Source: Eledone cirrhosa
Lineage: Eukaryota
Length of the DNA: 64,000 nucleotides
Direction of reading: 5' to 3'
Assembly: GCA_964016885.1 (NCBI GenBank)
Contig: OZ024743.1
Span: forward strand, 68,324,001-68,388,000
Both the position numbers and the translations under genes were made by a program. This document shows, piece by piece, positions 2,750 through 57,304 of the stretch. The notes beneath the pieces were generated by a model, which did not search any database, was not told where the DNA came from, and saw only the letters and a list, made by a program, of their open reading frames with translations. Each line of letters starts with the position of its first letter. Position 1 is the first letter of the stretch.

Positions 2750-2791
2750 GCACCTACGTACGTTTCGCCCGAAAAAGGGCTTCTCAAGGGC
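2750..2791 (-). ncRNA. Type I hammerhead ribozyme, U3-A8 variant (inverted copy)
   Basis: Exact reverse complement of 6491-6532. Confidence 0.75.
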
Positions 2792-3457
2792 ATACAAATC
2801 TAGAGTGTGTTCAATACAAAACCCAGAAGGAGTTTTAAGATGATAACCACATCGAAGTTCATGTATAAATTCAAACATACATGGCTGTTTGCATCACAGA
2901 GCAAGGGGAGTAACTCTGACCGGTGTTTGAATAAGTGTCCCTAAATTATTATCCGTTCACATGATAATTATTCTCCACTACTATTTTATGGGTGCCAACT
3001 TACTACTGCTTAGTCAGGCCGGATCTACGAGGCATAGTTGGTATACAGATGTTTAATTATGCATCCCGTCATCCGGCGTGTTATGGTTTGGTGCAGGAGG
3101 ACCCGGTTTATGGTGTTCAGATATAAACCGGGGTCCAACCATAGAATTACTGCGGTATTCTGTGCCCGCATTTTATCACGGATTCTGCTCTGCTGTTGAT
3201 GAGATTTAGGGGTGCTCTTACGATATGGTAAAGCTCCATGAGACAGAGCTGGCACTTCCTCTTGAAGTTGTAAGGTGTTGCTCTGCTGACAATGTCCCAG
3301 TATGTAGAGAAGCTGATGTTACCTCTGACAAAACCAGGAAGCTGTATAAGATGGACGTGAGCAAGTACACAACAATTTATTTATAACGAATTACACAAAA
3401 ACTATAAAAAACACATCAATTAGTACCTTAAACGACATTAACAGGGTAGGTAACGAT

Positions 3458-4195
3458 ATGCAGACTAGCTTAGACATAGACAAGTACACTAACCCATATG
3501 TCCCTATGACACCTAGATTCTCTCTTAAGGATCACAAATGTAACTTTAATGAAAGCCCCTCTATTAGGTTAATATGTTCCTCTACATCAGATATAGGTAG
3601 GATTAGTAAAGGGATACTCGATAGAGTAATATTTGAACTTAATAGAAAAGCTAAGATCTGTCTCTGGAACAACACCGACCAGGTCATTATTTGGTTCATT
3701 GAGTTGCCCGATAAGACAGCTCTAAAGTTCATCCAGTTTGACATAGATAGTTACTATGCCTCTATCTCCCCCATACTCTTAAACAATGCCTCTATTTTAG
3801 CTAGATTTAACACTAGCCTCACTAAAAATGAGATAGATATAGTACTAGCAGCGCGCAGAACTATTATCCAGTTCGAGGGTTCACATTGGACCATAAACAA
3901 CCGTCCTGATAACTTCGATATCACGATGGGGTTAATTGACTCGGCGCAAGCAACTGATATGGTCGGCATATACCTCCTCCATAGACTTAGGGACGAGATC
4001 CCGGTCCTACGAGAAGGTGTATATAGGGACGACGCCCTATTTACTGTTAGGAACCATAGCCCCGACGCGATAGATAACCTTAACAAGCGCATGCACAGGT
4101 TCTTCAAATCATACGTAACTATAGACCTCAACCACCAGATAGTCAACTTCCTAGACGTGACACTGGAGTTGGATACGGGTCTGTACAAGCCATGA
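3458..4195 (+). pseudogene. PLE reverse transcriptase core fragment
   Basis: Motifs FIQFDIDSYYASI, FDITMG, catalytic YRDD and VNFLDVTL; frame broken downstream. Confidence 0.9.
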
Positions 4196-4277
4196 AATTC
4201 TATCATATATAAATTATGCATCCAACCACACTAAGTCTACTCTCAACTCCATAGTATATAGCATATCCCATAGGATC

Positions 4278-5727
4278 TTGAGGCTATCCGCCAAAGAGAA
4301 CATCTTCAACCTAGCTGCTGACTACTACCATAAAGCCTTGGTGGATGCCGGATATAACCGAAGAATCTCATACCTCCATAACGCAGACTCTAGAAACTAC
4401 CCCCATCATAGGACTAATGCAAGTCATACCTATAACCAAATATGCAGCGGTCATGCTAGAGTCAATAATTGTAGAATAGAAAATAGCACTAAGAAACACT
4501 GCCGTCGCGTTAACTACCTGGGTGGTGGCGTAGACGGTCTACCGCAAAATAAGGGTCAAGATACGGGCAACGGTAGCCGCTGTAACCTACTAGAATTATT
4601 TCCTGCCTATAGTATTAACAATAGTGATGGCCTATTTCCTACACCCTCCAACCGGCGTTTAGCTACACGTAAATGTAACGCAAGGAAAGCTAGTGCACCC
4701 GAACATAAAGCGAAGGCGATGCGCTGTAGGCTGCAGCACAGTTGCAATAATAAGAACGGTGACCTAGCCAACACGACCCGTAATAAGCATACGGCTCCGC
4801 GTAAACGCCAACGTAATGTCCAATGGTTCAATCCTCCCTACTCTTGGAGTGTAGCCTCTGACTTATCTAGAATATTCTTCGAAGCTTTAGAGAAGTACTT
4901 CCCACCCAACCATAAGTACAGAAACATCCTCAATAAGAACAATGTTAAAATATCCTTCTCTACTACACCTAATCTAGCAGACATCATAGGGATAACTAAT
5001 TACAGTAAACTCACCAAAACACGGCACCATAGCAGCGATAAGCCTAGACATGAAAGCACCTCTGATAGCCTTAACGTTTCCCTAGCAGCACTCGACAAGG
5101 TTGTTGGCAGCTCCAACAGACGCAACCGCCAAAACACATCACAACAGACGCAACAGCCAACGACATCACAAAATTGAACGACTAGTACTGGCGACTAGTA
5201 CGGGTTGCAAGGGGGTAGCAGAAGGCGCTGTGAAGCGTGTAGTGTTAATTGTACTACCCCACGTGCCTTTGTATATAATATTACTAACTACGGAGTTAGC
5301 GGCATTGGTGTGGATGATAACGTAGATAGTGATAGTAATAGTCTTACTTCGGGCACTAGAAGCCACCGCAGCGGCAGCGACCGTGGCGGACGCTGCAACT
5401 GTCGTGACCCGGGAAGCTGTCCGCTCATGGGGAAGTTGCCTGACTGACAATGTTATATACAGGTGCATTGTAACTAGCCATAACAGTGTCAAACATTATA
5501 TAGGGGCCATATCTGGCTCGTTTAAAACTAAATTTGGAACACATCTCCACTCTTTTAGAAACAGGAAGCTAAGGTACTATACATCACTCGGCAACTACAT
5601 CACAATATTGAACGACTCCAGCATCACCTTCTTCACATACTGGGAAATTGTCAGCAGGGCAACACCTTACAACTTCAAGAGGAAGTGCCAGCTCTGTCTC
5701 ATGGAGCTTTACCATATCGTAAGAGCA
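4278..5727 (+). pseudogene. PLE RT C-terminus/linker and GIY-YIG endonuclease, frameshifted
   Basis: WFNPPYS...YFPPNHKY...VKISFS; CNCR..CPL; VIYRC...HYIG; CQLC. Confidence 0.85.
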
Positions 5728-6490
5728 CATATTAACCTAATAGAGGGGCTTTCATTAAAGTTACATTTGTGATCCTTAAGAGAGAATCTAGGTGTCATAG
5801 GGTCATATGGGTTAGTGTACTTGTCTATGTCTAAGCTAGTCGGCATATCTTTACCTACTCTGTTAATGTCGTTTAATGATGTGTTTTTTATAGTTTTTGT
5901 GTAATTCGTTATAAATAAATTGTTGTGTACTTGCTCACGTCCATCTTATACAGCTTCCTGGTTTTGTCAGAGGTAACATCAGCTTCTCTACATACTGGGA
6001 CATTGTCAGCAGAGCAACACCTTACAACTTCAAGAGGAAGTGCCAGCTCTGTCTCATGGAGCTTTACCATATCGTAAGAGCACCCCTAAATCTCATCAAC
6101 AGCAGAGCAGAATCCGTGATAAAATGCGGGCACAGAATACAGCAGTCATTCTATGGTTGGACCCCCGGTTTATATCTGAACACCATAAACCGGGTCCTCC
6201 TGCACCAAACCATAACACGCCGGGTGACTGAAGTGCATAATTAAACATCTGTCGTAGATCCGGCCAGACTAAGCAGTAGTAAGTTGGCACCCATAAAATA
6301 GTAGTGGTGAATAATTATCATGTGAACGGATAATAATTTAGGGACACTTATTCAAACACCGGTCAGAGTTACTCCCCTTGCTCTGTGATGCAAACAGCCA
6401 TGTCTGTTTGAATTTAAACATGAACTTCGATGTGGTTATCATCTTAAAACCCCTTCTAGGCTTTGTATTGGAAACACTCTAGATATGTAT

Positions 6491-55306: not shown

Positions 55307-55454
55307 GAAGAAGAAGAAGAAGAAGAAGAAGAAGAAGAAGAAGAAGAAGAAGAAGAAGAAGAAGAAGAAGAAGAAGAAGAAGAAGAAGAAGAAGAAGAAG
55401 AAGAAGAAGAAGAAGAAGAAGAAGAAGAAGAAGAAGAAGAAGAAGAAGAAGAAG
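55307..55454. repeat. (GAA)n microsatellite
   Basis: Pure tract. Confidence 0.97.
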
Positions 55455-55950
55455 ATCACAATTAGCAGCAGCAGCCTTTTACATCCGCTTTCCACGCTAT
55501 CACTGGTTGCTTAAGTTATTGGGCCAAGACGATTCAGCTCGGAAAGAAGTCATCCTGCTCATGCATTCCATGTTTTGCATGGTTTATACGGATGGAAACC
55601 CTTCTTAAGACCAACCAACTACCAACTGCCTTTCATTCACTTTTAGTGTCGCAGTGACTGCCATGACATCCAAACGCAAATGAACACAATATTAGTAGAT
55701 TACTATTAATAATAATTGAGAAAATCGGGTAAAATCACATTGGAGAGGCGGAACGTGAACAGAGGTGACTGCACCGATTCGTACCCTGTTGCTGTTAAAA
55801 AAGTTTACTAGCAATTATTTCGAGTAATCAACTATCACTATGGGCACTTGTGTTGATACGTTTACATTACACATTTAGAAAATGTTCACAATGCTGCTTA
55901 AGAAACACCTATATATATATATATATATATATATATATATATATATATAT

Positions 55951-56146
55951 AGACCCTCCATCTCAACTCACCCTTTGAAAAGCAGAAGAACTGCGAAACC
56001 GGTAAAGGAACCAAATAAATATATATATTTAAAAAAAAAATAAGACTTCAGTTGCATTTTCGATTTCATCCCTTTTTCTTTATACTTCCACTCGTGTAGG
56101 ACACCTCGGTTATTTTTCATTTTGTAAAGAAAAACCTCACTTTCTA
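55951..56146 (+). mobile_element. 8503-type PLE 3' end with a U3-A8 HHR at 55971-56008
   Basis: CCCU-UUGAAAA-GCAG(AAGAA)CUGC-GAAACCGGUA^AAGG; (TA)n flanks. Confidence 0.8.
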
Positions 56147-56210
56147 ATATATATATATATATATATATATATATATATATATATATATATATATATATAT
56201 ATATATATAT

Positions 56211-57304
56211 AATATAATTAGAAACACACAGATACATGCGGACACACACATATATACATGAATGCATCCGCACCCAACTGTGAGTTAAGGGTGCCAACTT
56301 CACCGATGTTGCTCAATGAATGACTGGGACAGACCAATTCAGTTGAACTAGACTGAACCAGTATCAGAGTTAAAAATACATTATGAAGAGAGAAGAAACA
56401 TTTAGATATAATTAGTAATAAAATGTATCATACCTAAACTGCTCCTAAATTCCTCGACTACGTAGTTTCGTGGCATAAACAAAAACAATATATCATAAAG
56501 ACATAGAGTCCTTGCGAGGTCTGCCGACTTATCAAGAGGATACCTCATTTTACTAGTCTCAAGAACGCGTCTACACGACGTGAGAAAGAATCCCAAAAGG
56601 CGGAGGGGGAGATAGTCACGCGATATAACGGTCGAGAAACAGAGCCAAGCCTCTTATAACCCCGAAGAAAATACCACGGAGGCGGAGGGGGTATTTATAT
56701 CGAGGCCGTAGAAGAGGTGGTGAAGAAGGCGAGAAGTATGAGTAATGGAAGCCTTCCAGCTGTCCCCACACTTCAAAGATTGCTCGACCAGAGGGAGTTA
56801 TTAACAATATAATTAGAAACACACAGATACATGCAGACACACACATATATACATGAATGCATCCGCACCCAACTGTGAGTTAACTCCCTCTGGTCGAGCA
56901 ATCTTTGAAGTGTGGGGACAGCTGGAAGGCTTCCATTACTCATACTTCTCGCCTTCTTCACCACCTCTTCTACGGCCTCGATATAAATACCCCCTCCGCC
57001 TCCGTGGTATTTTCTTCGGGGTTATAAGAGGCTTGGCTCTGTTTCTCGACCGTTATATCGCGTGACTATCTCCCCCTCCGCCTTTTGGGATTCTTTCTCA
57101 CGTCGTGTAGACGCGTTCTTGAGACTAGTAAAATGAGGTATCCTCTTGATAAGTCGGCAGACCTCGCAAGGACTCTATGTCTTTATGATATATTGTTTTT
57201 GTTTATGCCACGAAACTACGTAGTCGAGGAATTTAGGAGCAGTTTAGGTATGATACATTTTATTACTAATTATATCTAAATGTTTCTTCTCTCTTCATAA
57301 TGTA
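56211..57304. mobile_element. Fold-back element with about 424-bp arms whose spacer duplicates its own terminus
   Basis: Arms 56377-56800 and 56881-57304; spacer 56806-56883 matches 56211-56288. Confidence 0.85.
57141..57230 (+). ncRNA. Type I hammerhead ribozyme, U3-A8 variant (inverted copy at 56451-56540)
   Basis: UCCUC-UUGAUAA-GUCGGCA[long loop]UGCCAC-GAA-ACUACGUAGU-C^GAGGA. Confidence 0.8.

Follow-up and report, generated by a model that had tools for sequence, protein, structure and literature searches.

Short UUGANAA motifs recur in a 64,000-nt stretch of DNA from Eledone cirrhosa (assembly GCA_964016885.1, contig OZ024743.1, positions 68,324,001 to 68,388,000; "the window" is this whole stretch). 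They raise the question of whether they are hammerhead ribozymes in which the C3-G8 pair of the core has been replaced by U3-A8, and of how often such a replacement arose. The best explanation, which we regard as highly probable, is that they are predicted self-cleaving type I hammerheads at the 3' ends of Penelope-like elements (PLEs) and retrozymes, and that U3-A8 is a minority form which took the place of C3-G8 in master elements on several independent occasions and was then copied by retrotransposition. This explanation draws on the sequence, the position of the motifs at 3' ends before (TA)n, the linkage of two families (A and B) to reverse transcriptase (RT) and GIY-YIG domains, the tandem units of two others (C and E), the family consensuses, and the U3-A8 share of ~17%. 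The host has a 3.0-Gb, AT-rich, (TA)n-rich animal genome.

All eight cores listed in a sequence-only reading of the window, which had placed them in five families (A to E), are present, and each has stem II, GAAAC and a site that reads GUA or GUC. The positions in that reading mark where each motif starts on its left side, counted along the plus strand, and not U3 itself, which lies at 6495+ and 2787- (family A), 8608- and 55975+ (B), 19559- (C), 33019+ (D), and 57146+ and 56535- (E). The eight motifs represent six insertions, families A and E each forming an inverted pair, and all fit the type I core N3-UGA-N-N8-A ... GAAA with a Watson-Crick 3-8 pair. The further claim of stems I-III and a GUH site in each motif stands for the six copies that pass the fully stringent form of a structural descriptor in which positions 3 and 8 are left free, but the other two are damaged: stem I of the 55975 copy carries one C.A mismatch, and the 33019 copy has A10.1.C11.1 and a non-palindromic stem III. 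The family consensuses are complete (stems I, II and III, an open stem I and an NUH site), and U3-A8 is the consensus in all five families. The strictest descriptor matched 2 sites in the window but nothing in 30 shuffles; on 1.39 Mb the widest descriptor yielded 17 U3-A8 matches versus 0.75 per shuffle (4 shuffles). Reversed motif patterns had no match genome-wide. The Rfam hammerhead models had no match at gathering score on 5 loci, and CUGANGA-based searches would overlook U3-A8 motifs; no hammerhead is among the matches listed (150 of 265) in an Rfam scan of the window, where C3-G8 motifs are likewise not listed.

Families A and B belong to PLEs. The family A insertion (2692..6590, +) is a broken, rearranged Hydra-clade element that ends in (TA)n and has inverted arms of ~890 nt (2692-3577 and 5727-6590). 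Its coding parts comprise RT (3350-4192), thumb/linker sequence up to 5174, and CxCX5C plus GIY-YIG (5437-5724). The hammerhead (6489..6533, +; A8 6500) has a palindromic stem III and a predicted cut after 6527 (GUA); it recurs in the inverted arm (2749..2793, -; A8 2782) and has 5 exact-pattern copies genome-wide. Placement in the Hydra clade follows motifs published by Craig et al. (2021, PMC8557442), the tree described below containing no reference sequences. Family A has the RT, the CxCX5C linker, the C-terminal GIY-YIG with CxxC/CxH, the (TA)n target and the 3' hammerhead; the likeness to Hydra-clade elements extends to a DKT motif (seen in L188) and the frequent U.U adjoining the core. 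Unlike the published Hydra hammerheads, family A and two families outside the window, F and G, are U3-A8. Pfam gave no match on the family A RT/endonuclease fragments. Nematis, considered as a label for family A, was rejected in favour of Hydra on the clade motifs.

Family B is represented by a 5'-truncated Neptune-type PLE (8502..10110, -), in which a CX4CxxC linker and GIY-YIG (9634-10065) are followed by a ~1 kb 3' region ending in (TA)n. Its hammerhead (8573..8614, -; A8 8603; predicted cut after 8579, GUA) has 11,820 exact-pattern copies genome-wide, and the motif lies 1.0-1.4 kb downstream of CX4CxxC-GIY-YIG in 17 of 20 top loci. The 150 scored copies show 96-100% protein identity, many within 775-aa open frames. 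A short copy with the stem I mismatch (55969..56010, +) and a decayed copy absent from the sequence-only reading (29640..29690, -; U3 29684, A9 changed) also lie in the window. On its motifs (a DKG-like RT motif, a CX2-5CxxC linker, plus GIY-YIG at the C terminus) family B is classed as Neptune-type but not separated from Nematis against references, the linker being common to Neptune and Nematis. No match to the family B motif was found in metagenome contigs. One further Neptune-type element (L081:3410-4900) carries a U3-A8 motif with GCAA instead of GAAA.

By their sequences, families C and E fit the non-LTR (long terminal repeat) retrozyme pattern of a non-coding tandem unit with one hammerhead. 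The family C hammerhead (19519..19565, -; A8 19554; predicted cut after 19525, GUC) has 612 pattern matches genome-wide and a 319-nt tandem unit. Family E forms an inverted pair of partial 591-nt retrozyme units (56371..57310) with 430-nt arms that are 100% complementary. It contains hammerheads at 57140..57231 (+; A8 57151; long stem II; predicted cut after 57225, GUC) and 56450..56541 (-; A8 56530); the 5,668 pattern matches genome-wide are often ~591 nt apart, in units of 590-593 nt. The longest open reading frames (ORFs) starting with ATG are 75 aa (E) and 49 aa (C), and both units are stable when folded as circles, with z values of -5.7 (E) and -6.6 (C). Non-coding tandem units, one type I hammerhead per unit, low GC and a link to the pseudo-LTR (pLTR) of PLEs are also features of metazoan non-LTR retrozymes (Cervera and de la Pena, 2020, PMC7229834; Li et al., 2026, 10.64898/2026.07.22.740005), but the family E unit is longer than the 170-400 nt described and the core is U3-A8. 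The likeness is one of DNA units, circular RNA belonging to the known systems. The family E unit (L181:1500-2090) recurs as a whole wrap-around contig, ~99.5% identical and at a depth of ~8, in sequencing runs X4 and X5. These runs are labelled as two other organisms, and contamination is the simplest reading of the contigs; a wrap-around joint can stem from tandem DNA as well as from circles. In contigs of four runs, positions 3 and 8 of the family E core were free of any change at 10% or more.

The family D hammerhead (33013..33057, +; A8 33024) is a damaged copy of an old repeat family. Its motif pattern matched only itself genome-wide, but a DNA search with the window copy as query gave 38 further matches at 76-88%; of 12 relatives read, 10 have U3-A8 and 7 have G10.1. 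Family D is probably kin to family B. PLEs lie next to D or C in L185/L188 and L173/L189, but a link to RT by way of these neighbours was rejected, as those elements end in neither; the L189 element ends in family F, and L188 was left unlabelled.

How these motifs might act is suggested by stem III, which in A, B, E and the family form of C is self-complementary. Its duplex energies of -8.3 (B), -12.9 (E) and -20.1 kcal/mol (C, family form) compare with 0 to -1.8 as hairpins, and the greater stability as an intermolecular duplex agrees with PLE hammerheads that act as dimers (Cervera and De la Pena, 2014, PMC4209133). Two transcript copies would thus pair through the palindromic stem III into an active dimer, which would cut after GUA or GUC and so trim the PLE RNA. 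For families C and E, cleavage would release a unit-length retrozyme RNA. PLE proteins likely mobilise these non-coding retrozymes, reinserting the RNA at (TA)n. The U3-A8 pair would preserve the tertiary 3-8 contact; the swap would require two changes, both of them transitions towards A+T and plausibly bridged by a U.G wobble, and may be tolerated rather than favoured. Selection would act on master copies only, leaving the mass of genomic copies to decay neutrally.

The sequence-only reading took the repeated double substitution as a sign of selection for catalysis. Selection is visible between family consensuses but not among the copies of family B, where changes at positions 3 and 8 are as common as at the free position 7. 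Among at most 11,820 copies, single changes numbered 34 for C3-A8, 22 for U3-G8, none for C3-G8 and 45 for position 7 (a hand count put 31 of these as A to G; 22 versus 31, p 0.27), which indicates that genomic copies decay neutrally. The evidence for selection therefore sits in the consensuses and not among copies. U3-A8 is retained in 99 (E) and 98 (C) of the first 100 copies listed per family. Compensatory changes were examined in family C, whose stems are paired in 99% of 205 cells and whose 3-8 pair is U-A in 16/16; two-sided changes affect two pairs, in stem I and stem II (related copies, two events).

The number of origins was read from a tree of 22 RT/endonuclease fragments (122-659 aa), which separates a Neptune-type group from a Hydra group with support of 100/100. 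In the Hydra group, U3-A8 is the core of family A, of its sister L171 and of family F (L189, L119), which stands beside L038/L036 with C3-G8. The U3-A8 family G (L068, L146) falls within a 100/100 clade alongside L106 and the 58969 family, both C3-G8; L033, L169 and L034 are C3-G8. Families F (long palindromic stem III; L189, L119, L089, L090) and G (U.U at 10.1/11.1) end Hydra-clade PLEs. On a tree of 12 Hydra rows, 9 of them labelled, the core pair changes at least 3 times, and forcing the four U-A rows into one clade lowers the fit by 171 log units (p-AU 1e-129). The published Hydra set, 25 hammerheads from 25 of 27 families, is C3-G8 throughout (PMC8557442 File S2), so U-A is likely derived. 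The Neptune-type B, L100 and L081b are all U3-A8 and have the stem III ACYGGU-A, common to D; to judge from this shared motif, the U3-A8 of these four may be one old switch. The rows thus point to at least three switches in Hydra elements and, likely, at least one in Neptune-type elements. Repeated origin is in this way backed by the tree, but the description of the five families as unrelated stands only in part: the upstream flanks of A-E show no similarity (p 0.08-0.96, 10 pairs) and downstream matches consist of (TA)n alone, yet B and D share the stem III ACCGGU-A with two further Neptune-type elements, so five independent swaps are not established.

The share of U3-A8 was measured on 139 of 140 requested 10-kb stretches, evenly stepped over 23 large contigs (1.39 Mb). 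Because motifs had been missed, the descriptor was made wider three times, the widest using a score of 24, and C3-G8 to U3-A8 counts were 51-53 to 6-7, 52 to 12 and 83 to 17 with increasing width. At the widest, the 111 matches comprised 83 C3-G8, 17 U3-A8, 3 U3-G8, no C3-A8 and 8 others; shuffles gave 5.75 matches each, so about 5% are expected by chance. U3-A8 thus accounts for 17/100 paired cores (locus bootstrap 8-27%), and for 36 copies by homology versus 170 for C3-G8. Clustering of loci, which include ones fetched for U3-A8 families, left 25 multi-copy families, 18 C3-G8 and 7 U3-A8 (16 to 5 for families matched in the sample). Three of 28 multi-hit clusters had been dropped: G3-U8 with A4 (5 matches), an AT-rich U3-A8 with A4, and a duplicate locus. 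None of the 25 kept families has a U3-G8 or C3-A8 consensus, and mismatched consensuses are therefore not as frequent as U3-A8. L059 was considered as a family with a U3.G8 consensus and rejected, its 19 fetched relative loci being mostly C3-G8. A rough extrapolation from 206 motifs in 1.39 Mb gives ~440,000 hammerhead motifs genome-wide, ~78,000 of them U3-A8; the 120,000 named for the axolotl in a section title of PMC7229834 is below that figure.

U3-A8, which the sequence-only reading took as a known minority variant in nature, is already in print, including in PLEs. Perreault et al. (2011, PMC3088659) gave the first natural U3-A8 covariation, with several examples, and cited earlier in vitro activity; their examples are scattered, whereas those here are high-copy retroelement families. 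In Schistosoma mansoni, Cercyon PLEs contain ~1,300 U3-A8 minimal hammerheads versus ~2,000 minimal motifs with the canonical core, and a standard descriptor missed the U3-A8 motifs (PMC4209133). The present motifs resemble those of Cercyon in the same core swap, the PLE-borne type I fold, inverted pairs, solo copies and the dimer model. They differ in that stem III is present and palindromic, the U3-A8 share is lower (~17%), the number is far larger and an RT tree is used to place the swap. No earlier paper describing U3-A8 as arising repeatedly across a PLE tree was found in the accessible literature, which left most subscription journals and bioRxiv supplements outside. The motifs are thus real and the variant already known; what is new, the measured minority share and the repeated origin, is modest. 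In practice, descriptors fixed on CUGANGA would miss about one in six hammerheads here, including those of a very young, high-copy PLE family, and so under-count. In concept, several independent switches from C-G to U-A with no fixed mismatch family give comparative support for PLE hammerheads being kept catalytically competent. Neither point alters known chemistry.

Several observations count against the best explanation. No RT could be tied to families C, D or E, and the monomer folds of A and D lack the hammerhead as minimum-energy structure. In another PLE, from a lizard, core mutants lost cleavage and kept insertion in vitro, cleavage required protein, and no RNA-seq ends lay at the cut site (PMC11167929), which speaks against a needed role. 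The published Hydra set was collected with a C3-G8 descriptor. The tree rows are broken fragments, support for F with L038 is 82/77, stem I of L106 is weak, L034 and L106 are single loci, and some core labels were read after the first tree had been viewed. One gain with three reversals needs only one step more than three gains, and pLTRs may have been swapped between families. Finally, U3-A8 is somewhat more frequent in the window than in the genome sample (p 0.02-0.08; copies not independent).

Among the alternatives, one holds that four or more switches took place, at a rate above that of other animals, because the U-A core tunes cleavage (slower, dimer- or protein-dependent) in a way that benefits the element. 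This is doubtful; such a higher rate may amount to a weaker form of lineage shift. If the core is tuned, sister families differing at 3-8 would form a natural series for studying compensatory evolution in a catalytic core. A single old switch, spread by descent or 3'-end exchange and later reversed to C3-G8, is unlikely. The stem III common to B, D, L100 and L081b, the single extra step of the reversal scenario and a weak E/F flank match (p 0.005 uncorrected) are all consistent with it, whereas the flanks of A-E are unrelated, the stems differ, a single U-A clade is rejected, the published Hydra outgroups are C3-G8, and family G, like its C3-G8 sisters, still has the architecture with a long stem II. 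It is improbable, too, that the motifs have ceased to be needed for catalysis and are retained in the 3' end for a structural or protein-binding role, with U3-A8 arising by drift in AT-rich DNA. All 25 kept consensuses hold a Watson-Crick 3-8 pair of just two kinds, the sole followed-up U3.G8 candidate family turned out to be C3-G8, and G5, A6, A9, GAAA and the cut triplet are kept, although copies decay neutrally, cleavage was dispensable for insertion in vitro in the lizard PLE (PMC11167929), and families with other core changes (U4C, U4A) are abundant.

Still less can be said for the lineage-wide shift raised in the sequence-only reading, here taken as a shift to U3-A8 under host-level pressure, which is very unlikely and, as a genome-wide statement, rejected. 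The spread of U3-A8 over seven families and two or more PLE clades, three readable Neptune-type rows that are all U3-A8, and the modest enrichment of the window would suit it, but C3-G8 holds 83/100 paired cores, 18/25 families and most copies, young C3-G8 families coexist, and the window contains 19 C3-G8-family motifs. That AT-rich repeats merely match a short motif by chance deserves almost no credence: short stems, the weak window copy of D and the ~5% chance matches of the widest descriptor are outweighed by the empty shuffles and reversed patterns, the fixed place at element ends and the compensatory stem changes, so that chance is ruled out for A, B, C and E, and D rests on 12 relatives.

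The window tally is 9 motifs of U3-A8 families versus 19 of C3-G8 families, several of the latter decayed or fitting by homology alone and 2 read by eye; these 19 are absent from the sequence-only reading. Position 3 of the C3-G8-family motifs lies at 2170-, 7283+, 8187+, 26270-, 30329-, 40630+, 41057-, 41399+, 42072-, 53151+, 54356+, 54803-, 58186-, 60294+, 60574- and 63519+, and, in motifs with a changed core, at 60653+ (U3.G8 copy), 61610- (A3) and 62568- (G5 changed). The very abundant Hydra-clade 58969 family (58186-, 60294+; ORF 58969-60004-) has 59,521 first-look candidates including relatives, an upper-level figure, and its 3' hammerhead has C3-G8, U4C, A.A at 10.1/11.1 and a stem II arm of 81 nt. 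A conserved TGA in its endonuclease was considered as selenocysteine and rejected, being a true stop. Another Hydra-clade family is U4A (CAGAAGA; 41057-, 41399+, 53151+, L038, L036), with 27 copies in 1.39 Mb; changes at U4 may equal the 3-8 swap in frequency here. The motifs at 54356+ and 54803-, identified by eye, are the two members of an inverted pair and represent a further hammerhead-like motif with C3-G8 and U4C. The window also contains a satellite of ~15 units of 559 nt, 98-100% identical (42180-50307), and an RT frame of a non-LTR retrotransposon (50664-52973+; Pfam RVT_1, E 4e-33) that is unrelated to the hammerheads.

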